Shown piece by piece: positions 832 through 15,052 of a DNA stretch of 64,000 nt. A program made the position numbers and the translations under genes. Source of the DNA: an uncultured Gammaproteobacteria bacterium. GTDB lineage: Bacteria; Patescibacteriota; Microgenomatia; Daviesbacterales; UBA10151. The DNA lies in the NCBI GenBank assembly GCA_964547465.1, contig CAZJNI010000004.1, forward strand, positions 19,927 through 83,926, written 5' to 3'. Within the stretch, counting starts at the first letter, position 1, and every line of letters begins with the position of its first letter. The notes under the pieces were generated by a model that saw only the letters and a program-made list of their open reading frames with translations, was not told the DNA's origin and did not search any database.

Positions 832-1784
832 AAAAGATCATAACTTTTATAATTCTCATAATTATTATAATTTTTATATTAAGAGGTTGGTGGCAATCTC
901 AACTTGGTCCAGTTTCTTCTGATAATAAATCAGTAGTATTTGTAATAGATAAAGGTGAGGGATTTTCTCAAGTTACTGATGATTTAAAAAAAGCAAAACT
1001 GATTAAAAACCCTTTAGTTTTTTCTTTGTATGGAAAACAATCCGGATTGGCAGGAAGAATACAAGCCGGAACATTTAGACTATCTCCCTCTGAATCTTCA
1101 CAGCAAATCCTTAAGGTTTTAACTGACAATCCGCTGGATACATGGATAACCTTAATTGAGGGATGGAGAATAGAGGAGATGGCAGATGTTTTAAGTTCAA
1201 AGTTCAAAATTCAAAGTTCAAAGTTTTTAAAAATAGCCAAAGAGGGTTATATGTTTCCGGATACATATCTTTTTTCAAATGATGTGACAGAAGAGCAAAT
1301 AGCAAAAAGATTAAGAGACACTTTTGACTTAAAATTTACTAAAGATTTAAAAGATAAAATTAAAGCCAAAGGTTTAACTGAAAATCAGGGTGTAATTTTA
1401 GCATCAATTGTGGAAAGAGAAGCCAGATCAGATAAGGTAAGGCAGGAGGTAGCCTCTATTTTACTGAAAAGATTTAAAATTGGCATGGGGCTTAATGCTG
1501 ATGCCACAATCCAATATGCGCTGGGATATCAACCCCAAGAAAAAAGTTGGTGGAAAAGGCATTTAAGTCATGAAGATCTGACTATTAATTCTCCCTACAA
1601 TACATATATCCATTCAGGGTTGCCCCCAACCCCGATTTCTAATCCAGGATTATCCTCGCTTCAAGCAGTGGCTAATGCAGATCCCGCCACTCCATATTTA
1701 TATTATTATCATGATTCAAAAGGTAATTCCTATTATGCGAAGTCGCTAGACGAGCATAATGCAAATGTGGCAAATCACCCATAA
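828..1784 (+). CDS. mltG: YceG/MltG-like endolytic murein transglycosylase
   Basis: N-terminal TM helix, 318 aa, YceG-like domain architecture; start overlaps ruvX stop. Confidence 0.65.
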   Translation: MKKIITFIILIIIIIFILRGWWQSQLGPVSSDNKSVVFVIDKGEGFSQVTDDLKKAKLIKNPLVFSLYGKQSGLAGRIQAGTFRLSPSESSQQILKVLTDNPLDTWITLIEGWRIEEMADVLSSKFKIQSSKFLKIAKEGYMFPDTYLFSNDVTEEQIAKRLRDTFDLKFTKDLKDKIKAKGLTENQGVILASIVEREARSDKVRQEVASILLKRFKIGMGLNADATIQYALGYQPQEKSWWKRHLSHEDLTINSPYNTYIHSGLPPTPISNPGLSSLQAVANADPATPYLYYYHDSKGNSYYAKSLDEHNANVANHP

Positions 1785-1790
1785 CTTCAG

Positions 1791-2243
1791 ATGAAAAAGC
1801 ATTTTACTGCAACTGTTTATATTGTCTCCAAAATTGATAATGAATATAAAGTTTTGCTTCATTATCATAAAAAGCTTAAAATCTGGATTGCAATTGGAGG
1901 ACATGTTGAAAAAAATGAAAACCCGATAGAGACTGCTTTAAGAGAAGTTAAAGAAGAAACAAATCTTAAAATTAAAATTTTAAATAATAAAAAGCTTTTA
2001 AAATTAAAAGGAATAAATGAGATTATCTTGCCTGTTGCGGTAGTTGAAGAAGATGTCCCGGAATACTGGGATGAACCTTTCCACCAACATATAGATCTAA
2101 TTTATTTCGCATTTTGTGAAAATCCAAAGAAATTAAAAATGGAAGAAGAATCCAGGTGGTTTTCCAAAAAAGATTTAAAATCAGCTCATTTAAATAAAGA
2201 AGTGCTAATATTGGCGGAAAGAGCACTAGATTCTTATGTTTAA
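1791..2243 (+). CDS. NUDIX hydrolase
   Basis: Nudix box GGHVEKNENPIETALREVKEETNL (GX5EX7REUXEEXGU). Confidence 0.7.
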   Translation: MKKHFTATVYIVSKIDNEYKVLLHYHKKLKIWIAIGGHVEKNENPIETALREVKEETNLKIKILNNKKLLKLKGINEIILPVAVVEEDVPEYWDEPFHQHIDLIYFAFCENPKKLKMEEESRWFSKKDLKSAHLNKEVLILAERALDSYV

Positions 2244-2604
2244 TTTTTGGGGGAAGGTTAGAAAAGCAAATCTTAGGGGAAGAAAATTAGGATTTCCAAC
2301 TGCCAATGTATCTTTGCATAAAAATATTCCAGAAGGAATCTATATTTCTAAAATTACTTTGGATGGGAAGAAGTATCAGTCAGTAACTTTTATTGGGGTA
2401 GCAAAAACTTTTGGAGAGAAAAGATTTCATTCCGAAACTTATATTTTGGATTTTAAGAAAGAAATTTATGGTAAATGGATTTCTGTGGAACTAATTAAAA
2501 AAATCAGAGGAAATATAAAGTTTAATTCGGCAGAAGAGTTAATTAAACAAATGAAGAACGATGAAAAGATAGCAAGAAAATATTTTTACCTCTTGACTAG
2601 GTAG
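2236..2604 (+). CDS. Riboflavin kinase domain protein (RibF C-terminal domain-like, monofunctional)
   Basis: GRKLGFPTANV motif of riboflavin kinase; only ~120 aa, no FAD synthetase domain. Confidence 0.55.
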   Translation: MFNFWGKVRKANLRGRKLGFPTANVSLHKNIPEGIYISKITLDGKKYQSVTFIGVAKTFGEKRFHSETYILDFKKEIYGKWISVELIKKIRGNIKFNSAEELIKQMKNDEKIARKYFYLLTR

Positions 2605-2735
2605 TTTCCTTATGGTAAATTAAGATTAATTAAAGAGAAATTTCGGAGGCGTACGGTAACGTATGCTTCATTTTGTTGACTCGTAGATATAGAAGGATAT
2701 TGACGAGCAAGACTGCCCGGTCTGGCCATCTACTA

Positions 2736-5700
2736 ATGTCTTTACAACTTGTTGATAATAAAACTATACGTAAATCATGGAATAAAGCACCCACTTTAAC
2801 CCCACAGCTAAACTTAATAAAAATTCAACTTGATTCATATAATTGGTTTCTAACAGAAGGTATAAGAGAAGTTTTGGATGAGATTTCCCCGGTTGAGGAT
2901 TTCACCGGCAAAAATTGGTCTTTGGAACTTGGAGGTTTTTCATTTGGTAAACCCAAATATACTCCGGATTTGGCAAAAGAAAAGGGCGTCACATATGACG
3001 CTCCTTTAAAAATTGAGGCTATTTTAGTTAATAAACAAACTGGCGATAGGGGTAAGCAAGAAGTTTTCTTAGGTGATATTCCCCAGATGACCGAGAAAGG
3101 AACCTTCATTATAAATGGGGTAGAAAGAGTCATTATTAATCAATTGGTCCGCTCTCCCGGAGTATTCTTTTCTGCAACTGATGATCCAATTACCGGAAGA
3201 AGGCTTTATTCAGCAGAGGTTAGACCATATAGAGGTTCCTGGTTGGAATTTTCAATTTCCCGAACCGGTGTTTTAACTGCCAAAATAGACAGAAGAAGAA
3301 AATTTGCGGCTACAACCTTACTTCGAGCTTTAGGCTTTTCAGATTCGGAGTCAATAATGCAGCTATTTAGTGATGTGGATACAACTGAAGATAAATATAT
3401 TGAAACAACTTTGAGTAAAGATCCAACCATAAACTCTGATGAAGCTCTTTTGGAAATTTTTAGAAAAATGCGTCCAGGTGATCCGGTTGTTTTGGATAAT
3501 GCCAAAGCTTTACTTGAAGGAATGTTTTTTAACTCCAGACGTTACAATTTAACAAAAGTTGGCAGGTTTAAAATTAACAAAAGACTGGGATTGGATATTG
3601 CAAATACTTTAGAGAATTGGATTTTGACCAATAATGATATTATTGCCACTTTAAAATATTTAATTAAATTAGCAAATGGTGAAGGAAAAGTGGATGATAT
3701 TGACCATTTAGCAAACAGAAGAGTCAGGTGTGCCGGGGAACTGGTACAGCAAAACGCCTTTAGGATCGGAGTTTTGAGACTTGAGAGAATTATTAAAGAG
3801 CGAATGAGCTTAACAACAGCTGATCAAGAACCCACCCCAGGTGGGTTAATTAATGCCAAACCGGTGATTGCTGCTATTAATGAATTTTTCCGCTCATCTC
3901 AACTATCCAGCATTTTGGATCAGGTAAATCCGCTATCTGAATTAGATCATTTAAGAAGATTATCTGTGATGGGTGCAGGTGGGATAACCCGTGATAGGGC
4001 CAGCTTTTCTGTCCGTGATATTAACCATTCTCAATACGGCAGGATTGATCCTATCCGTTCTCCTGAAGGACAAAATATTGGTTTGGTAACCTATTTAGCC
4101 CTTTATGCCAGAATTAATGAGTACGGATTTTTGGAAACTCCATATAGAAGGGTCGTTTTAGAGCGGGGTAAGCCCAGAATGACTGATGATGTAGTGTATA
4201 TTACAGCTGATGATGAAGAAGATTATCATATAACGGAGGCAACAGTTAACACCGATACAAAAGGTAATATTTTAGACGATCGGGTTCCCATCAGATATCA
4301 GGGAAATTTTTTTGAAGGGGAATCTAAACAGGTCTCTTTGATTGATATCTCACCTCAACAAATCTTTGGAACCTCAGCCGCTTTAATTCCATTTTTAGCA
4401 AATGATGATGCAAACAGGGCTTTAATGGGAACTCAAATGCAGTGCCAGGCAGTGCCTCTTCTTAACCCTTCTGCTCCAATTGTTGGAACCGGGATGGAGC
4501 GAATTGTGGCGGATAATATGGGAAGAGTTGTTAGAGCACCTGAAGATGGGGTGATAGTGGCTGTTGATGGTAAAAAACTTATTCTTGAAGGTAGGAAGGA
4601 TGAGTATAAATATGAGATAAAAAAATTTATCCACTCACCTCAAGGAACTTGTTATTCTCAAAAACCGGCTGTAAAGTTAGGACAAAAGATTAAAAAGGGT
4701 GATCTGTTAGTTGATGGTGCAGCTACCCAAAATGGTGAGTTGGCTTTGGGACAAAATCTTCTGATTGCTTACATGAGTTTTGAAGGATTAGGCTATGAAG
4801 ATGCTATTGTAATTTCAGATAGATTGGTTAGGCAGGATCTTTTAACTTCAATCCATATTGAGGAATATGAGGTTGATGTGGTGGAAACAAAGCTTGGACC
4901 GGAAGAACTAACCCGGGATATTCCAAACGTATCTGAAGATGCATTGAGAAACTTAGATGAGCGGGGAATTGTCAGTATTGGTGCTGAAGTTTTGCCAAAT
5001 GATATTTTGGTTGGCAAAGTTCAGCCTAAAGGTGAGACAGAGTTGACTGCCGAAGAAAGGCTGCTTCGTGCAATTTTTGGAGAAAAAGCCAAAGAAGTAA
5101 GAGACACTTCCTTGAGAGTTCCTCATGGAGAAAGAGGTACTGTAATTGGAGTTCAAATTTTATCCAGGGAAGAGGAAGATGAGCTGGATACAGGAACATT
5201 AATGAGAATTAAGGTTAAAGTTGCCCAAATGAGAAAAGTAACTGAAGGAGATAAGCTGGCAGGAAGGCATGGAAATAAAGGGGTTATCTCTCGAATCGTC
5301 CCGGTATCTGACATGCCGCATTTAGAAGATGGAACACCGGTTGATATTATTATTTCTCCCTTGTCTGTTTTATCCCGTATGAATTTAGGACAACTTCTGG
5401 AAACTCATTGGGGTTTTGCTGCAGAAAAATTGGGTTATAAAATTGCCGCCCCGGTTTTTGAGAAAATGCCGGAGGAAATGTTAATTGCCGAGCTTAAAAA
5501 GGCAGGTTTGCCTACTGATGGAAAAGTCAGACTGATCGATGGGAGAACCGGTCAGGCTTTTGATAACACTATTGTGGTTGGTAGAAATTACATCTTAAAA
5601 CTGATCCATATGGTGGAGGAGAAAATTCATGCCCGCTCCACCGGACCATATTCTTTAGTAACTCAACAGCCTTTGGGCGGAAAAGCACAAATGGGAGGAC

Positions 5701-6077
5701 AAAGATTGGGAGAGATGGAAGTTTGGGCGCTGGAGGCTTATGGTGCTGCACATATTTTGCAGGAGATGCTGACCATAAAATCTGATGATGTGGTGGGAAG
5801 GGCTAAAGCTTTTGAGGCAATTGTTAAGGGAATAGATATTCCACAAGCTTTAATCCCTGAATCATTTAAGGTTTTGGTAAAAGAGTTGCAGGCACTAGGT
5901 TTAAATGTTGAGACACTGGGGGCAAAGATAGTTCAGGCACTGGAAGTCGAGGAAAAGAAAGTTGTTTTGGAAGAAGTGGCAGAGCTGGCGCAGGTTTTGG
6001 ATGCGAAAGAGACAGCAACAGATGAAGAACTTAGCGCTGAAGGAAGCAATTTTGAATTAGTGGAGGGGAATAAATGA
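2736..6077 (+). CDS. rpoB: DNA-directed RNA polymerase subunit beta
   Basis: Full-length RpoB homology (fork, rifampicin-region, catalytic motifs); ORF opens at 2673 but conserved N-terminus (LIKIQLDSYNWF) indicates start at MSLQ ~2736. Confidence 0.95.
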   Translation: MSLQLVDNKTIRKSWNKAPTLTPQLNLIKIQLDSYNWFLTEGIREVLDEISPVEDFTGKNWSLELGGFSFGKPKYTPDLAKEKGVTYDAPLKIEAILVNKQTGDRGKQEVFLGDIPQMTEKGTFIINGVERVIINQLVRSPGVFFSATDDPITGRRLYSAEVRPYRGSWLEFSISRTGVLTAKIDRRRKFAATTLLRALGFSDSESIMQLFSDVDTTEDKYIETTLSKDPTINSDEALLEIFRKMRPGDPVVLDNAKALLEGMFFNSRRYNLTKVGRFKINKRLGLDIANTLENWILTNNDIIATLKYLIKLANGEGKVDDIDHLANRRVRCAGELVQQNAFRIGVLRLERIIKERMSLTTADQEPTPGGLINAKPVIAAINEFFRSSQLSSILDQVNPLSELDHLRRLSVMGAGGITRDRASFSVRDINHSQYGRIDPIRSPEGQNIGLVTYLALYARINEYGFLETPYRRVVLERGKPRMTDDVVYITADDEEDYHITEATVNTDTKGNILDDRVPIRYQGNFFEGESKQVSLIDISPQQIFGTSAALIPFLANDDANRALMGTQMQCQAVPLLNPSAPIVGTGMERIVADNMGRVVRAPEDGVIVAVDGKKLILEGRKDEYKYEIKKFIHSPQGTCYSQKPAVKLGQKIKKGDLLVDGAATQNGELALGQNLLIAYMSFEGLGYEDAIVISDRLVRQDLLTSIHIEEYEVDVVETKLGPEELTRDIPNVSEDALRNLDERGIVSIGAEVLPNDILVGKVQPKGETELTAEERLLRAIFGEKAKEVRDTSLRVPHGERGTVIGVQILSREEEDELDTGTLMRIKVKVAQMRKVTEGDKLAGRHGNKGVISRIVPVSDMPHLEDGTPVDIIISPLSVLSRMNLGQLLETHWGFAAEKLGYKIAAPVFEKMPEEMLIAELKKAGLPTDGKVRLIDGRTGQAFDNTIVVGRNYILKLIHMVEEKIHARSTGPYSLVTQQPLGGKAQMGGQRLGEMEVWALEAYGAAHILQEMLTIKSDDVVGRAKAFEAIVKGIDIPQALIPESFKVLVKELQALGLNVETLGAKIVQALEVEEKKVVLEEVAELAQVLDAKETATDEELSAEGSNFELVEGNK

Positions 6078-9000
6078 ACGATCTTTTGGATTTTGAAAGT
6101 TTAAAATTAACAGTTGCTTCAGCTGAACAAATCAGATCATGGTCTTTTGGTGAGGTTACAAAGCCTGAAACTATAAATTACCGGACTTTGAAAGCTGAAA
6201 AAGACGGCCTGTTTTCAGAAAATATCTTTGGTCCTACCAAGGATTATGAGTGTTACTGTGGAAAATATAAAAGGATCAGGTATAGAGGGGTAATTTGTGA
6301 TAAGTGTGGAGTTGAAGTAACCCAATCCAAAGTCAGACGTGAGAGAATGGGCCATATTAATTTAGCCTCACCGGTTGCCCATACCTGGTTTGTTAAAGGT
6401 GCCCCATCAAAGTTGTCTTTGATCCTGGACATATCTCCTAAAAATCTGGAAGCTGTGGTTTATTTTGCTTCATATTTAATTATTGCAGTTGATCCGGAGG
6501 GAAAAGCGCAAGCTTTACAAAAATTGGATAAAGATCTGTCAGCTAAAATGGAAGAGTTTAAAAAAGTGTTAGATAAAAATATTAAGGGTCTGGAAGATTT
6601 GCTGAAAAAAGATCTGTCTGATCTTAAGAAAAAACTTGATAAGCAAAGCTTGCCTTCTAAAGAAGGGAAAGAAAAATTTGAGTTGGAAGCACAAGAGATG
6701 GAGCTTAAAGGCAGGCATGAAATTCAAAAACTACGTGATAATCATATAGTTGAGCTGGGACAGCTGGAAAATATCTATAAAGCGGTTTCGGATTTGGTTA
6801 AAAGTGTTATTCCCTCAAAGCTTTTGTCAGAGGAGGAATATTATAAACTTTCAGAATACGGAGTTTCGGAGTTTTTGAGCGTAGGGATGGGTGCAGAAAG
6901 CTTACTTGAGGTATTAAAAAAACTTGATTTGGATAAGCTTTCTGCTTATCTGCGGGATGAAGTTAGAAAATCAACAGGTCAAAAACATATTAAAGCTACC
7001 AAAAGACTTCGGATTGTTGAAGGTATGCGTTCTGCTTCGATTTTGCCTGAATGGTTAATTATCAAAGTCTTACCAATTTTGCCGCCTGATCTTCGTCCAA
7101 TGGTTCAGCTTCCTGGAGGCAGGTTTGCCACATCTGATCTTAATGATTTATACAGAAGAGTAATTAATAGAAACAACAGACTAAATAGATTAATTAATTT
7201 AGGTGCACCGGAAATTATTTTGCGTAATGAAAAGAGAATGCTTCAGGAGGCAGTCGACTCATTGATTGATGCTTCATCCAGATCATCCAGAAGGGGGGGG
7301 CCGGTACTTGCGCATAATTTAAGATCGCTTTCAGATATGTTAAGAGGCAAACAGGGAAGATTTAGACAGAACCTTTTGGGTAAGCGAGTTGATTATTCCG
7401 GAAGATCAGTGATTGTGGTTGGTCCTAAATTAAAACTGGAACAGGTGGGTTTACCAAAAGAGATGGCTTTGGAGATGTTTAAGCCGTTTGTCTTAAGAGA
7501 AGTTATTGCCAGAGGTTTGGCATCCAATGTAAAGGGAGCAAAAAATGTTTTGGAGGCACGGCTTGCTGAAGTTTGGGATATTTTGGAAGAAATTATCACC
7601 GGGCATCCGATCCTTATAAACCGTGCTCCCACTTTGCATAGATTAGGTATTCAGGCATTTTTCCCTATTTTGGTTGACGGAAATGCCATTCAGATTCATC
7701 CTTGTATTTGTGCCGGATTTAATGCTGATTTTGACGGAGATCAAATGGCAATCCATGTACCGCTGTCACAAAAAGCTCAAGATGAGGCTAAAAGTTTAAT
7801 GATGGCCAGAGAAAATATTTTCGGCCCGGCTCATGGTCAACCGATTACTGTACCGAATAGAGAAATGGCTTTGGGTTGCTATTACCTGACCTATATTTCA
7901 AATGCGGATATGGAAAAAGAAGCAATACCTTTTGTATCTGCTGATGATGCAGTCAGGGCATACAACTTAGGCAAAATCAAAGTGCAGCAGAAAATTAAAG
8001 TTAAGATAAGCGGTCAAGTTTTAGAGACATCTGTGGGGAGAATTCTTTTTAATCAGGTTTTGCCGGAAAGTATGCCTTTTCTAAACTCTGTTGTTAAAGG
8101 AATTACCATCAGAGATATTATTCTTAAAGCCACAGAAACTTTTTCGAAAGAGGAAGTTTCGGAAATTATAGACAAGATTAAAACTGTTGGGTTTATGGGC
8201 GCAACAATAGCCGGGATTTCAATTTCTATTTTTGATGCCAAAGTAGTTCCTGATAAACAAAGATATTTGGATTTGGCAGAGGAAGAAATTGAAAAAATCG
8301 AAGGAAATGTTGCCAAAGGATTAATTACTCCGCAGGAAAAATCACAACTCTCACAGATGGTTTGGATCAAAACTACTGAAGATTTGGCAAATTCAACCTG
8401 GGACTTTTTGGGACCGCAAAATCCAATCAGGATGATGGTTGAGGCAGGAGCCAGAGGCTCAAGAGATCAGGCAAAACAACTCTCTGCCATGAGAGGTTTA
8501 TCTACAGATCCAACAGGTAAAATTGTGGAGCTGCCAACAAAATCAAACTACAGACAAGGCTTATCTGTTTTTGAATACTTTACATCTGCCAGAGGAGCCA
8601 GAAAAGGAGTGGCAGATAAAGCCTTAAAAACAGCTGATGCAGGATATTTAACCAGAAGGCTTGTTGATATTGCCCATGATGTAATTATAAGGAAGGAAGA
8701 TTGCGGAACAAAAGAGGGGCTTTTGTATGATATTTCCAAAAGTTCATTTAATACAGCCAGGGAGAAGCTTTTGGGTAGAATGATTTTGGAAAATGTAACT
8801 GAAGGTAAGAGTCGCAAAGTCTTGTTTAAATCAGGAGTAATTTTAACAGAAGGATTGATACAAACTCTGATAAAATCAGGTGTAACTGAAGTTATGGCAA
8901 GGTCTCCCTTAACTTGTGCTGCAACTTATGGAATTTGTATTGCCTGTTATGGGTTTGATCTAACAACCCGGGAAATGGTTAAGATTGGTACTCCTGTTGG

Positions 9001-9793
9001 AGTTGTAGCTGCACAAGCTATTGGTGAGCCTGGAACACAGCTGACCATGAGGACTTTTCATACAGGAGGAATTGTTGGGTTGGATATTACTCAAGGCCTT
9101 CCCAGGGTTGAAGAACTCTACGAGGCAAGAACTCCTAAGGTGGTGGCCCCGCTCTCTGAAATTGCCGGAAAAGTTTCTATTTTAGAAACTGAATTGGGAG
9201 TTAGAGTTAGGGTTAGAACAACCTCAAAGCCGCACGAGGAAAGAGAATATATTATTCCTGTCACAGCCACACTGTTGGTTGAAGAAGATCAATTAATTGA
9301 TGCAGGTACTATTTTGGCATCTGGTCATATTGATGTCAAAGAAATACTGCGCGTTCAGGGACTGAAAGCAGCTCAAAGATATATTGTAGATGAGGTAAGA
9401 TCTGTTTATGAATCACAAGGAGTGCCAATTAACGAGAAGCATTTTGAAGTTATTGTTAGAAAAATGTCTGATAAGGTTAGGATTGAATCACAAGGAGATA
9501 CTAACCTTTTGCCTGGTGAAATTATAGACCAGATTAAATTTGAGGATGAAAATAAAAGAGTTTTGGCTAGTGGAGGGGAACCTTCCACAGCAGAAGTTGT
9601 AATACTCGGGATAACCAGGGCTTCGCTACAAACAGAAAGCTTCTTATCTGCTGCATCTTTTCAGGAAACAACAACTATTTTATCTGATGCAGCTATTCAG
9701 GGAAAATCTGATAAACTATTAGGCTTGAAGGAAAATGTTATAATTGGACGTCTAATCCCAACCAGTGTTGAAAGAGCTATGTTAGAAAGATAA
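6074..9793 (+). CDS. rpoC: DNA-directed RNA polymerase subunit beta'
   Basis: Zn-finger CX2C...CX2C near N-term, NADFDGD catalytic motif, 1239 aa; overlaps rpoB stop. Confidence 0.95.
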
Positions 9794-9798
9794 GGATC

Positions 9799-10302
9799 AT
9801 GCCAACCATTAATCAATTAGTTAGAAAAGGTAGAAAAGCAATTGTTAAAAAGATTAAAGCCACAGCCCTTCGCCGAAGCTTTAATGCCAAAGATAGAGCC
9901 TACACTCAAAATTTTAATCCGCAAAAGCGGGGGGTAGTTACTTTGGTTAAAACCATGACTCCAAAAAAGCCTAATTCAGCTCTTCGAAAAGTTGCCAGAG
10001 TCAGACTTTCCAACAGGACAGAGGTTACAGCATATATTCAGGGTGAAGGCCACTCGCTGGCAGAGCATGGAATTGTTTTGGTTCGGGGTGGCAGAGTTAA
10101 GGATTTGCCGGGAGTAAAATATCATTTGATTCGTGGAAAATTTGATTTGGCAGGGGTGGTCGGCAGAAAACAAGGCAGATCTATGTATGGCACAAAGAGT
10201 GGTGAAGCAGCAGTTGCGCCCAGATCTGTTGCAGCTCCAATGACAGCAGCACCTGCTGCGCCAGCAACTGGCCCCGCAAGTCCGGCAGGAGAGGCAGCTT
10301 AA
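9799..10302 (+). CDS. rpsL: 30S ribosomal protein S12 with ~35 aa Ala/Pro-rich C-terminal extension
   Basis: [11 protein letters not shown]... KKPNSALRK ... [13 protein letters not shown] motifs; tail [31 protein letters not shown] encoded by unusually GC-rich DNA. Confidence 0.9.
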
Positions 10303-10780: not shown

Positions 10781-11314
10781 ATGATTACCATAATTTTTGA
10801 AGTACATTCCACTACTTTTGATAATGAGAAACATCTTTCTTCTGGACATAATGATGTAGGACTTTCTCCACTTGGTGAAAAGCAAGCAAAGGAATTAGGA
10901 CAAAGATACGAGCATGAAACTTTTGATGCTATATTCTGTTCGGATTTACAAAGATCATATAAAACAGCAGAGATAGCTTTCGGAAAAAGATTTTCAATTA
11001 TTAAAGATAAGAAATTAAGAGAATGTGATTATGGAGATTTAACTGGTCATCCATCAGATGAAGTGGATTCAGCTAAAGTGGAACATATAACTGTGCCGTT
11101 TCCTAATGGAGAATCTTATGAAGACTGTTTGAAAAGAATGAAGGAATTTTTAGATGATCTAAGACAAAAATATCACGATCGTAGTACTTTTGTCCTAATT
11201 ATTGGTCATAGAGCTACACAGTATGGATTAGAATATTTGATAAATGGAAAATCTTTAAAGGAATTAGTAACAACTCCCTTTAAATGGCAACCAGGTTTGA
11301 TTTATAGATTTTAA
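10781..11314 (+). CDS. Histidine phosphatase family protein (phosphoglycerate mutase-like), divergent active site
   Basis: Alignment to dPGM/PhoE fold: EVHSTT..DVGLSPLGEKQAKELG in place of RHGES..DVDLSEKG; second His in IIGHRATQ; canonical RHG replaced by VHS. Confidence 0.5.
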   Translation: MITIIFEVHSTTFDNEKHLSSGHNDVGLSPLGEKQAKELGQRYEHETFDAIFCSDLQRSYKTAEIAFGKRFSIIKDKKLRECDYGDLTGHPSDEVDSAKVEHITVPFPNGESYEDCLKRMKEFLDDLRQKYHDRSTFVLIIGHRATQYGLEYLINGKSLKELVTTPFKWQPGLIYRF

Positions 11315-11333
11315 AAAGTGGTAAAATAGGAGT

Positions 11334-11564
11334 ATGTCACGAGTTAATCTAGAACCAAATCCCTTAGAATCTCAATCTAAGGTAGGAGAGGTAATTAAAA
11401 CAGCCGTACATACTTTAGGTAGGCCTTTCAGAGAGGCAATCCAGCGGATATTTCCTCGTAAGAGAAGTACACGTCAGACGATAATTAGAGTTTATGATCC
11501 TCTTAGAACAGTGGGTAATCATCCAGGATCAACTTTTGATTTGCCACAGAAACCAAAAGATTGA
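11334..11564 (+). CDS. Hypothetical small protein
   Basis: 76 aa ORF between phosphatase and GreA-like gene, no recognisable motif. Confidence 0.25.
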   Translation: MSRVNLEPNPLESQSKVGEVIKTAVHTLGRPFREAIQRIFPRKRSTRQTIIRVYDPLRTVGNHPGSTFDLPQKPKD

Positions 11565-11603
11565 CCCGCGCAAATTTCTTTGAAATTTGATCGGGTTGAC
11601 TTT

Positions 11604-11660
11604 TAGGATCAAAATGTTTAGAATTAACTTGTTGCCTCCCGAGAATTGAGGGAGGCTTTT
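11604..11660 (+). promoter_or_regulatory. Sigma70-like promoter (TTGACT-17-TAGAAT) immediately followed by GC hairpin + T-run (GCCTCCC-N9-GGGAGGC-TTTTT)
   Basis: Sequence inspection 11604-11660. Confidence 0.35.
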
Positions 11661-11703
11661 TAAATATTATAAGCAAAGCTTGAAATTTTAGAAGACTAAA
11701 ATT

Positions 11704-11928
11704 ATGGACAGTAAATTAAGACAGGAAAAATTAAAAATGTGGAAAGAAAATCTAGCTAATTTGGAAAAACAACTGGCAGAGATTTTAATTAAAAAAGGCC
11801 AGGCGGCACAGGAGGGCGATTTATCTGAAAACGCAGCCTACAGCATGGCAATTGAAGATTCTGAAACAGCCAGAGTCAGGATTGAAGAAGTTAAAAAAAT
11901 TATTAAAGATTTGGAAGAGAGTAAATAA
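11704..11928 (+). CDS. Stand-alone GreA/GreB N-terminal coiled-coil domain-like protein (74 aa)
   Basis: [17 protein letters not shown] matches Gre-factor NTD signature GDL(K/S)ENAEY with acidic tip residues; no C-terminal FKBP-like domain; stop overlaps fusA start. Confidence 0.5.
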
Positions 11929-14072
11929 TGGCTGTAACTAAGACCAAACGTGATTTTCCACTAGATCGTATACGTAATATTGGTATTATTGCCCATATTG
12001 ATGCCGGGAAAACTACTACCACCGAGCGAATCCTCTTTTATACAGGAAGATCCTACAAAATCGGTAATATTGATGAGGGAACAACTGTAACCGACTGGAT
12101 GGAACAGGAGCGGGAGCGTGGTATAACTATTGTTTCTGCCGCAATTACCACTTTTTGGACAGTCAAAAAAGACCAGGGATTATTTAAAGATTTAGAAACC
12201 AGAATTAACTTAATTGATACTCCGGGACACGTTGATTTTACAGCAGAGGTGGAAAGATCTTTGCGTGTTTTAGATGGAGCGGTGATTGTTTTGGATAGCT
12301 CTTCCGGCGTCCAATCTCAAACAGAGACTGTCTGGAGACAGGCTAATAAATATGGGGTACCCTTGATTGCTTTTGCCAACAAAATGGATGTGGTGGGTGC
12401 GGATTTTATGGCTACAATACAATCTGCCAGGGATAGGCTGGGAGCTAATGCTGTTGCCTATAATTTGCCAATTGGCAAAGAAAATGATTTTAAAGGTGTG
12501 GTAGATTTGCTTACTCAAAAAGCATATGAGTGGATGGGTGATGAAACAGGCGCCATGTTTAATGAGATAGAAATCCCCTCTGATATGGCAGATAGCGTAA
12601 AAATAGCCCGGGAAAAGCTGGTTGAGGAAATTTCCGGTTGCGATGATGTTTTAATGGAAAAATATCTGGGTGGGCAGGAAATGTCTGTGGAAGAGTTAAA
12701 AATAGCCCTAAGGAAAGCGGTGATTGGAAATAAAATTGTGCCTGTTATGGCAGGATCATCTCTGCGGAATAAAGGTGTTCAGCCAATGTTGGATAGTGTG
12801 GTGGAATATCTGCCATCCCCCCAGGATATTATCTCCTTTAAAGGCAAAAATCCAAAAACCGGGGAGGAAGAGGAAAGAAAATCTGATCCGAGTGCTCCTC
12901 TTTCTGCTCTAGCCTTTAAAATTCAGGTTGATCCCCATGTTGGAAAATTAACTTATATTAGAGTTTATTCAGGAACGCTAAAAAGCGGAACATATGTTTA
13001 TAATTCCACCAAACAGATTAAAGAAAGAGTCGGTAGATTGTTGTTAATGCATGCCAATGACCGGGAAGAGATAGACGAGGCATATGCCGGAGAGATTGTG
13101 GCAGCTGTTGGACTTAAAGATACAATTACCGGAGATACGCTTTGTGATGAAAATGCTTTGATCGTCTTAGAATCTATCAATTTCCCTGATCCTGTTATAT
13201 CACTCGCAATTGAGCCAAAGACAAAGTCAGATCAGGAAAAGTTAGGCTATGCCCTAAACCGTCTTGCAGAAGAAGATCCAACATTTAGAGTAAAGTCTGA
13301 CCCTGAAACCGGACAAACAATTATTGCCGGAATGGGTGAGCTGCAGCTGGAAATTTTAGTTGAAAGGATGAAAAGAGAATTTAAGGTGGATGCTAATGTG
13401 GGTCAGCCACAAGTTGCATATAAAGAGACTATTACCAAAGCGGCTGAAGGAGAAGGCAAGTATATCCGTCAAACAGGAGGCAGAGGTCAGTATGGTCATT
13501 GTTTGCTCAAGATTGAACCACTTCCTCGCGGCCTTGGTCGGGAATTTGAATCAGCAGTGGTGGGTGGAGCAATTCCCAGAGAATTTATTCCGCCAATTGA
13601 AAAAGGTGTGATTGAAAAAGAAGACACCGGAATTCTGGCAGGATATCCGCTAACAGATATAAAAGTGACTGTTTATGATGGTTCATTCCATGATGTTGAT
13701 TCCTCTGAAGTTGCATTTAAAATCGCTGCATCTTTGGGTTTATCTGAAGCTGCCAAAAAAGCAGACATGATTTTGCTTGAGCCAATCATGAAGGTGGAAG
13801 TGACCACTCCTGATGAGTTCATGGGAGATGTGATTGGGGATTTATCTTCTAAAAGAGCTCAAATTTTAGGAAGCTATAAAAGAGGAAATTATACTGTGAT
13901 TGATGCGCTGGTGCCTTTGGCAGAAATGCATGGATATGCAACAGCTTTGAGGAGTATGTCTCAAGGCCGGGCCGGATATTACATGGAAGCAGACCACTAT
14001 GACCCGGTGCCCAAAAATATTACGGAGAAAATTGTGGAAACTTCAGGATTTACCGGTCGAGTTGAGCATTAA
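11928..14072 (+). CDS. fusA: Elongation factor G
   Basis: [17 protein letters not shown] GTPase motifs, 714 aa. Confidence 0.95.
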
Positions 14073-14362
14073 TCTTTTTTATGAAGAATAAAATAATGAC
14101 TAAGCTGTTGGTAGGTTTCAGCATTTTTAGCGGTTTTTAACCCGTGGATCATCTGACTCCTGATTCTTTGCTCAACTATTTCTATAGACTCATTAGGCCA
14201 ACCTCCAGCTTTTATACCTAGGGGAATAAATTCTAAATAAGTAAATCTTCCAACAGCTATTTTTAGTTGTGACTGTATTACTGGTATTTCGCAGGTTTGT
14301 ACCCATGTTGTTCCTGTATCAGCTACAGGAATTAAATATTCTCCAAGTTCAATTTTTCCCAT
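14069..14362 (-). CDS. Hypothetical protein
   Basis: 97 aa ORF convergent with fusA; no recognisable family. Confidence 0.2.
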
Positions 14363-14437
14363 CAGAGGATTTTAACAGGAAGAAGCTGGGGAATCAAATA
14401 TTTGACAAAGAAGTAAATTTTATCTAAGCTGGAATTA

Positions 14438-15052
14438 ATGTCTAATTCAAATCAAGACAAAGGCTCGGCTCACCTTGTGGCTATATTATCAGTTGGCCTT
14501 GGAGCTCTTTTAGTTATTTCTTCTGCAATACCAGTTAACAGAAACTACAATGACGGAAAGTCTGATGTAGCCGGAGTATATCTGGCCAAAGGAGATGCCT
14601 CTAAATCCGCAATGATGGAAAAGCAGGATTTTAAGATTGCAACGTCCGGTGGCCAAACAGCTTTGGTGAATAAAAGAGTAGGAGCTTTGTCAAATTTCCC
14701 AATATCTGTTGACCCGGTCACCAAACAGCTAACTGTCACCACCCCGGCAGGATCTAAAATAGTAGCAGTTTTACCACAGCAGGCAATAGATAATATGCTG
14801 GCGTCACATGTAATGACTGATGTGATGGGAGAAAAGGTAAATAGTGAGCTGGCAAGCATTCCCAGTCTGGTAAAATTGGAGGAGAAAAACGGGGTGTTGG
14901 TTTATAAAGTTAAAGGAACAAAAACCCATAAATTGTTAGGTTTTATCCCCATAAAGACCGGAGTTGAGGCTTTTGTTTCAGCTGAAAACGGCCAGGTTGT
15001 TGAAAGCACTGATTCTCTTCTTGGCAGGATCCTCAACAGACTTGCTCCTTAA
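14438..15052 (+). CDS. Hypothetical membrane-anchored (signal/TM N-terminus) protein
   Basis: N-terminal hydrophobic segment AHLVAILSVGLGALLVISSAI then soluble domain; inserted between fusA and tuf. Confidence 0.4.
   Translation: MSNSNQDKGSAHLVAILSVGLGALLVISSAIPVNRNYNDGKSDVAGVYLAKGDASKSAMMEKQDFKIATSGGQTALVNKRVGALSNFPISVDPVTKQLTVTTPAGSKIVAVLPQQAIDNMLASHVMTDVMGEKVNSELASIPSLVKLEEKNGVLVYKVKGTKTHKLLGFIPIKTGVEAFVSAENGQVVESTDSLLGRILNRLAP

Follow-up and report, generated by a model that had tools for sequence, protein, structure and literature searches.

A conserved stand-alone Gre N-terminal coiled-coil encoded upstream of fusA in Candidatus Daviesbacteria

Current models of Gre, Gfh, DksA, and related factors have these proteins hold RNA polymerase (RNAP) by a globular domain while a coiled-coil probes the active site, and every characterized bacterial secondary-channel factor is made up of a coiled-coil and a globular RNAP-binding domain (PMC4598747). 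In GreA and GreB (PDB 1grj for Escherichia coli GreA; Pfam families PF03449 plus PF01272), the coiled-coil is N-terminal and antiparallel, its tip carries the motif G-D-L-x-E-N-A-x-Y with two acidic residues (D41 and E44 in E. coli), and the C-terminal FKBP-like domain binds the beta' rim helices. The coiled-coil also has a basic patch, which touches the RNA 3' end. For Mycobacterium tuberculosis Gre, both tip mutations (D43N/E46R) and a C-domain mutation (S127E) have been tested, and S127E abolished RNAP binding (PMC3132773). The Gre-like inhibitors Gfh1 (from Thermus) and Rv3788 (from M. tuberculosis), which have acidic tips, also act via the secondary channel, and they too have two domains and bind in a C-domain-dependent manner. 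Rnk is likewise a two-domain protein, with a shortened coiled-coil. Small factors that reach the active site via the secondary channel include TraR (73 aa) and DksA, and TraR illustrates that about 70 aa can suffice; however, these proteins belong to a sequence family unrelated to Gre, dock on the rim helices by a zinc-binding globular part, and have a DxxDxA tip.

Here, we describe a gene that encodes the coiled-coil part of a Gre factor only. It lies directly before fusA in a 64-kb stretch of DNA, referred to as the window (Table 1). The sequence-only reading of this DNA had proposed that the 74-aa product, which we call mini-Gre, is a Gre N-terminal domain that lacks the FKBP-like domain, and both parts of the proposal hold. 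The Pfam profile GreA_GreB_N (PF03449) matches it significantly, at E=6.1e-8 and 33.2 bits where the gathering cut-off is 24.5, and the match aligns residues 6-69 to positions 4-68 of the 71 in the profile. A local HMM made from 149 Microgenomates GreA proteins, all full length, scores mini-Gre at 60-63 bits (E about 2e-20), and the alignment covers HMM positions 4-67 of 149. Mini-Gre thus begins at helix 1 and ends at the boundary between the Gre N- and C-domains, and its coiled-coil is full length, equal to that of its homologs GreA and GreB and unlike the shortened one of Rnk. The NCBIfam greA models align to mini-Gre by their N-terminal halves only, with scores far under the full-length cut-offs.

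The missing half was searched for at several scales. Neither Pfam nor NCBIfam detected a C-terminal domain in the protein, and the three downstream frames hold fusA only and no Gre C-domain, as the sequence-only reading had expected. In the 64-kb window, no Gre C-domain was found by tblastn with E. coli GreA or by a sensitive C-domain HMM run with filters off (--max), and PF01272 was absent from 80 related loci totaling 1.1 Mb. A split or frameshifted C-domain nearby was therefore ruled out, since the downstream frames, the tblastn search, and the --max HMM search were empty in the window and 91 loci. Mini-Gre is confirmed as a stand-alone Gre N-terminal coiled-coil without the FKBP-like domain by which Gre factors bind RNAP. 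Further, it shows no match to DksA/TraR (PF01258) in Pfam at E<=1, and there are no cysteines among its 74 residues.

Table 1. Features of the mini-Gre locus, in coordinates of the window
Feature	Position	Strand	Basis or detail
Promoter-like element, TTGACT (-35), 17 nt, TAGAAT (-10)	11596..11624	+	Consensus scan, 10 of 12
Leader hairpin, GCCTCCC-(9 nt loop)-GGGAGGC, then TTTTT	11634..11661	+	Folds as a 7-bp stem
Mini-Gre gene (Gre N-terminal coiled-coil only, 74 aa)	11704..11928	+	ORF, ATG start
Family-specific K-x3-W motif codons, K9-L-K-M-W13, near the open end of the hairpin	11728..11742	+	
Tip-motif codons, G38-D39-L40-S41-E42-N43-A44-A45-Y46	11815..11841	+	D39 = 11818-11820, E42 = 11827-11829
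Mini-Gre/fusA junction: purine-rich GGAAGAGAG, TAA stop 11926-11928, fusA ATG 11928-11930	11913..11930	+	Read from sequence
fusA (EF-G, 714 aa), downstream partner	11928..14072	+	

An AlphaFold2 model computed from a 29-sequence alignment is a single helical hairpin (pLDDT 87) with helices at residues 3-36 and 44-72. The loop between them, E37-N43, bears D39 and E42, the counterparts of E. coli D41 and E44, at the predicted hairpin tip, where mini-Gre has GDLSENAAY (residues 38-46). The top PDB match of the model is E. coli GreA (1grj, rmsd 1.3 A over 60 columns), and GreB and Gfh1 were also found; the E-values from Foldseek are weak, helical hairpins being generic, and many unrelated hairpins fit the model equally well. 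No PDB sequence was matched by the mini-Gre family profile at E<=0.01. The protein also differs from canonical GreA in its N-terminal residues, where it has K-x3-W instead of TxxG: in the alignment to the GreA HMM, K9 stands in place of the Gly of that motif and W13 in place of a core Leu (E. coli L14). The Trp is kept in every family member, divergent paralogs included. Mini-Gre has 14 Lys and Arg residues in total, of which K30 and K31 are kept in the close clade.

Full-length relatives place the gene apart from ordinary greA. Of the two closest full-length groups, one (the A3 clade) belongs to Candidatus Shapirobacteria, whose greA genes sit at loci unrelated to the str operon, whereas mini-Gre lies within that operon before fusA; the other closest full-length protein (P0146) is from an unrelated MAG, and its neighbor, ComEC, provided no anchor for synteny. 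Because Shapirobacteria keep a two-domain GreA at unrelated loci, a normal GreA was present in the Microgenomates ancestor, and the idea that a syntenic full-length greA was truncated in situ was rejected. An exhaustive profile search of 1.84 billion representatives returned 53 proteins at E<=1e-3, about 35 of them short and stand-alone, and two-domain Gre factors entered only from E=6.5e-6. Among these 53 matches, no two-domain Gre had an N-domain that stood out as close to the minis, and in none was a mini-type domain fused to another domain. A phage origin was rejected, given that viral contigs hold no relatives.

Conservation, a point that the sequence-only reading had left to be checked, proved to be extensive. 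A search of 5.8 billion clustered proteins yielded 276 clusters related to mini-Gre. The best 120 of these are mostly 72-84 aa long (three have 97-103 aa), all have PF03449 as their sole domain, and those named by organism are Candidatus Daviesbacteria; NCBI annotates most homologs as hypothetical proteins. A scan of GTDB species genomes gave 117 relatives, from which 80 loci were kept, and in 72 of the 80 a homolog of 70-86 aa is found directly upstream of fusA, always within the Candidatus Daviesbacteria clade. The rpoC genes of these loci are just 61-87% identical to that of the window, yet rpsG-[mini]-fusA is retained in all 72. Among these str-operon homologs, overall identity to the mini-Gre of the window falls as low as 41%, the tip G-D-L-x-E-N/D is kept in every one, and K9, W13, A34, G38, D39, L40, E42, N43, A44, and A45 are invariant. 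Comparison of the window gene with 14 loci shows saturation at synonymous sites (pS 0.66-0.96), and dN within the close clade is 0.12-0.19 for mini-Gre, compared with 0.20-0.23 for S7 and about 0.10 for EF-G. By these measures, mini-Gre is a real gene under strong purifying selection.

The sequence-only reading had also allowed for a decayed greA remnant, and one could further suspect a spurious ORF, given that the gene is short and that its homologs are mostly annotated as hypothetical. We give this explanation almost no credence. The related clusters are numerous and the best of them mostly of one length, synteny and the ten invariant positions extend across the clade, dN is smaller than for S7 with synonymous sites at saturation, and no frameshifted C-domain follows the gene; the strength of purifying selection and the invariant tip exclude decay.

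The taxonomic labels of the loci need some care. By title, the 80 comprise 31 Daviesbacteria, 7 Microgenomates/Patescibacteria groups, 3 entries named "bacterium", and 39 "uncultured Gammaproteobacteria". The last of these labels looks like a placeholder, because the rpoC and EF-G of those 39 are 61-89% identical to those of the window. The NCBI lineage runs from the Patescibacteria group through the Microgenomates group to Candidatus Daviesiibacteriota. As a separate observation on public records, the 39 MAGs with Gammaproteobacteria titles (from a binchicken/co-assembly series; L013, L014, L016, L017, and 35 others) have rpoC, S12, EF-G, and EF-Tu 61-97% identical to those of Daviesbacteria. 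We found no literature that pairs GreA with Daviesbacteria, Patescibacteria, or Microgenomates.

Related loci have the conserved order rpoC-rpsL-rpsG-[mini]-fusA-tuf, and the beta and beta' genes of the window occupy 2673..6077 and 6074..9793. In the window, base A11928 is common to the mini-Gre stop codon and the fusA start codon, an overlap that the sequence-only reading had described correctly, and the purine-rich GGAAGAGAG within the last mini-Gre codons is a possible ribosome-binding site for fusA. Across the 72 loci, the two genes overlap in 12, are 0-6 nt apart in 35, 7-20 nt apart in 5, and more than 20 nt apart in 18, with a second mini-gene between them in the remaining 2; these distances were projected from tblastn coordinates and may be in error by a few nucleotides. 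The overlap or gap of at most 6 nt in 47 of the 72 loci supports the view, suggested by the junction in the window, that mini-Gre is co-transcribed with fusA, and the two are probably also translationally coupled. A Gre-EF-G fusion protein made through readthrough or frameshifting was ruled out, as the junction ranges from overlap to more than 100 nt.

A linkage to fusA that is so tight and conserved, with frequent start/stop overlap, would also be expected if mini-Gre had been recruited to a role outside RNAP that explains its place before fusA, for example as a chaperone or partner for EF-G or the ribosome. A helical hairpin is a generic interaction module, as the many equally good unrelated matches to the model remind us. 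We nevertheless consider such a role improbable. The part of the protein that is most conserved is exactly the Gre catalytic tip, and the gene adjoins rpoB-rpoC as well as fusA. Some genomes have a second mini-gene or more than 100 nt between mini-Gre and fusA, unlinked paralogs exist away from fusA altogether, and a leader terminator of the greA type precedes mini-Gre.

This leader, like the existence of a lineage-specific family with paralogs, goes beyond what the sequence-only reading had noticed. We infer that the promoter-like element in Table 1 is active as a promoter. The hairpin would then be close to the 5' end of the predicted transcript, because its stem starts about 9 nt past the -10 box, and together with the U-run it looks like a terminator or attenuator. 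We analyzed 71 leaders, namely the window and 70 loci with enough upstream sequence. A hairpin followed by a T-run is present in 57 of them, compared with 0.26 on average and never more than 2 after shuffling, and 54 of these 57 also have TTGAC-N16-18-TAnnnT ahead of the hairpin, with TTGAC invariant in a MAFFT alignment. The -10 box mostly ends 8-9 nt ahead of the stem in the 57 leaders that have a hairpin. What is conserved is the pairing and not the stem sequence, given that 34 different stem-pair sequences occur. The promoter-plus-hairpin module is found a single time in the 64-kb window, and the leader has no match in Rfam. Three loci are without the leader, and in these the mini-gene comes directly after rpsG.

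Leaders of this kind are familiar from Gre-family genes. The greA and rnk families are among those most often preceded by premature terminators in Proteobacteria, bacilli, and Clostridia (PMC2965389), and two-thirds of E. coli greA transcripts end in the leader (PMC2836576). Autoinhibition by E. coli GreA requires catalytically active GreA together with cis-acting leader sequences (PMC6829880). In the E. coli greA leader with GraL (PMC2836576, PMC6829880) and in the greA/rnk leaders (PMC2965389), a strong promoter and, within tens of nucleotides of it, an intrinsic terminator precede the Gre-family gene, and the conserved promoter and promoter-proximal hairpin of mini-Gre resemble this arrangement. 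The likeness is one of layout only: there is no sequence similarity, and the mini-Gre unit also includes fusA. Because the hairpin starts almost at +1, the mini-Gre leader has no room for an antiterminator. The leader may instead serve fusA and tuf, or it may just terminate the upstream operon.

On the basis of homology, fold prediction, the local absence of the C-domain, conservation, synteny, and leader structure, we favor, with moderate confidence, the reading of mini-Gre as a minimal cleavage factor of the secondary channel that is produced together with EF-G; from the same observations we infer RNAP binding, stimulation of cleavage, coupling to fusA, and autoregulation. The hairpin would enter the RNAP secondary channel and bring D39 and E42 to the active site, where, like that of GreA, the tip would help to coordinate Mg2+ and so promote endonucleolytic cleavage of RNA that is misincorporated or backtracked. 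Docking by a bare hairpin is hard to account for, because known factors bind via the globular domain and the S127E mutation abolishes binding. The missing anchor could be compensated by the conserved K9, W13, and K65-I66-I67 at the open end, which might stabilize the hairpin or contact the channel rim, by high cellular abundance, or by both. A high abundance is proposed because mini-Gre and fusA appear to be co-transcribed within the rpoBC-rpsLG-fusA-tuf cluster and are probably coupled in translation. Transcription from its own promoter would run directly into the hairpin and U-run, as at greA leader terminators, and this could permit autoregulation.

Isolated GreA N-domain fragments, which have been studied in vitro, have the same polypeptide extent as mini-Gre. 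In work attributed to Koulich, Nikiforov and Borukhov in 1998 (J Mol Biol 276:379), the isolated E. coli GreA N-domain reportedly keeps a weak cleavage-inducing activity, with the C-domain giving binding. Those fragments were laboratory truncations with poor affinity for RNAP, whereas mini-Gre is a natural gene, selected throughout a lineage and with conserved substitutions of its own. It keeps the catalytic tip and the regulatory layout typical of greA but is without the defining domain; therefore, mini-Gre should not be filed as a canonical Gre factor, yet it most likely works like one.

Additional mini-genes bear on how the family may have diversified. Unlinked copies occur in four assemblies that also hold a str-operon copy, and those beginning MNDLQKxKLEMW retain the acidic tip. 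Four loci have tandem pairs in which GDLSEN is kept by one partner, while its neighbor carries VGYLSENAYK, with the tip Asp replaced. A second, divergent mini-gene with the tip GDWHENAEYEDAE or GDWEENAEYEDAQ lies between the main mini-gene and fusA in two genomes (L062:2717-2986, L073:10194-10454), and this tip type is also found in P0137, P0139, P0141, P0144, and P0149. The altered tips (VGYLSEN, GDWHEN) suggest functional specialization among channel binders, for which Gfh1 and Rv3788 offer a possible analogy.

The same paralogs could be taken to mean that mini-Gre itself is a modulator or competitor, whose hairpin would sit in the channel, adjusting or obstructing catalysis, or would vie with a two-domain GreA in the same cell, as Gfh1, Rv3788, and Rnk do with Gre factors. 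Intact acidic tips do occur without cleavage activity in Gfh1 and Rv3788 (PMC4598747, PMC3132773), and the ancestor had a two-domain GreA of the kind that Shapirobacteria retain elsewhere. If such a GreA is co-resident, mini-Gre may modulate rather than carry the main cleavage function. However, a competitor without an anchoring domain would be expected to lose against the full-length factor, and the invariance of the tip across the 72 str-operon copies is more in keeping with catalysis than with plugging. Further, no Daviesbacteria two-domain Gre was found among the best 240 full-length CPR GreA clusters, a weak test: two CPR GreA profile searches had no Daviesbacteria-named GreA in the best 120 of 1,804 matches and the best 120 of 5,613, respectively, and this is a weak negative. 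We regard a role as modulator or competitor as unlikely, if worth keeping in view.

If mini-Gre is indeed a minimal cleavage factor, Gre factors may work in a far smaller form than the textbook description. A natural factor that consists of the coiled-coil only, is found lineage-wide, and is strongly selected would define the minimal secondary-channel factor, would point to an alternative docking mode, and would offer a compact tool for probing backtracking and proofreading. It would also be a concrete case of ultra-small CPR genomes trimming core machinery. Should the genomes also carry a normal GreA, mini-Gre would be a lineage-specific accessory regulator, which is less striking and still uncharacterized. 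A broader reading joins these threads, and we offer it as tentative, possible rather than probable. Daviesbacteria would have lost two-domain Gre entirely, and the 74-residue hairpin would carry out cleavage and proofreading, docking independently of a C-domain via its K9/W13 open end. The scaffold would have radiated into a set of channel factors, comprising unlinked copies, tandem partners without the Asp as possible antagonists, and the GDWHEN copies, while the main gene would be autoregulated by its greA-like leader terminator and dosed together with EF-G.

Several smaller observations concern the surroundings of these genes. Extra unlinked mini-gene copies were recorded at L081, L082 (= L009), L089, and L091, and also at L067, L069, L078, and L086. 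At L009:2131-3634 (= L082), a tandem mini-gene pair is immediately preceded by a CBASS-type pair of CD-NTase and Cap15 genes together with an HTH gene and a PLD-like gene. A link of the unlinked paralogs to defense islands was rejected, because CD-NTase/Cap15 occurs at one locus and is absent from the shared neighbors of the 8 paralog loci; the neighbors these loci have in common are only partly conserved chromosomal genes.

In the str operon of the window, positions 10781..11564 between rpsG and mini-Gre contain a gene for a 177-aa histidine phosphatase (His_Phos_1) and an ORF of 76 aa that is not conserved. This segment looks like a strain-specific insertion, because L001-L003 have mini-Gre directly after rpsG. 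The 76-aa ORF (orf76, 11334..11564) was rejected as a partner or C-domain substitute, as it has no Pfam match and is unlike the ORF at the same place in L004. The S12 protein of the window (9799..10302) has 167 aa with an Ala/Pro-rich, low-complexity C-terminal tail, and its orthologs in L001 and L004 have 154-156 aa. Two ORFs occupy the spacer between fusA and tuf (14069..15052), one of 97 aa (minus strand) and one of 204 aa (plus strand); the content of the spacer varies among related loci, and in L004 it includes GIY-YIG and glycerol-3-phosphate dehydrogenase genes. Finally, in L001, a JGI contig, rpoC is called as two genes of 873 and 312 aa (1253-4945), probably owing to an assembly error or frameshift, since the similar contigs L002 and L003 have a single gene of 1,230 aa.
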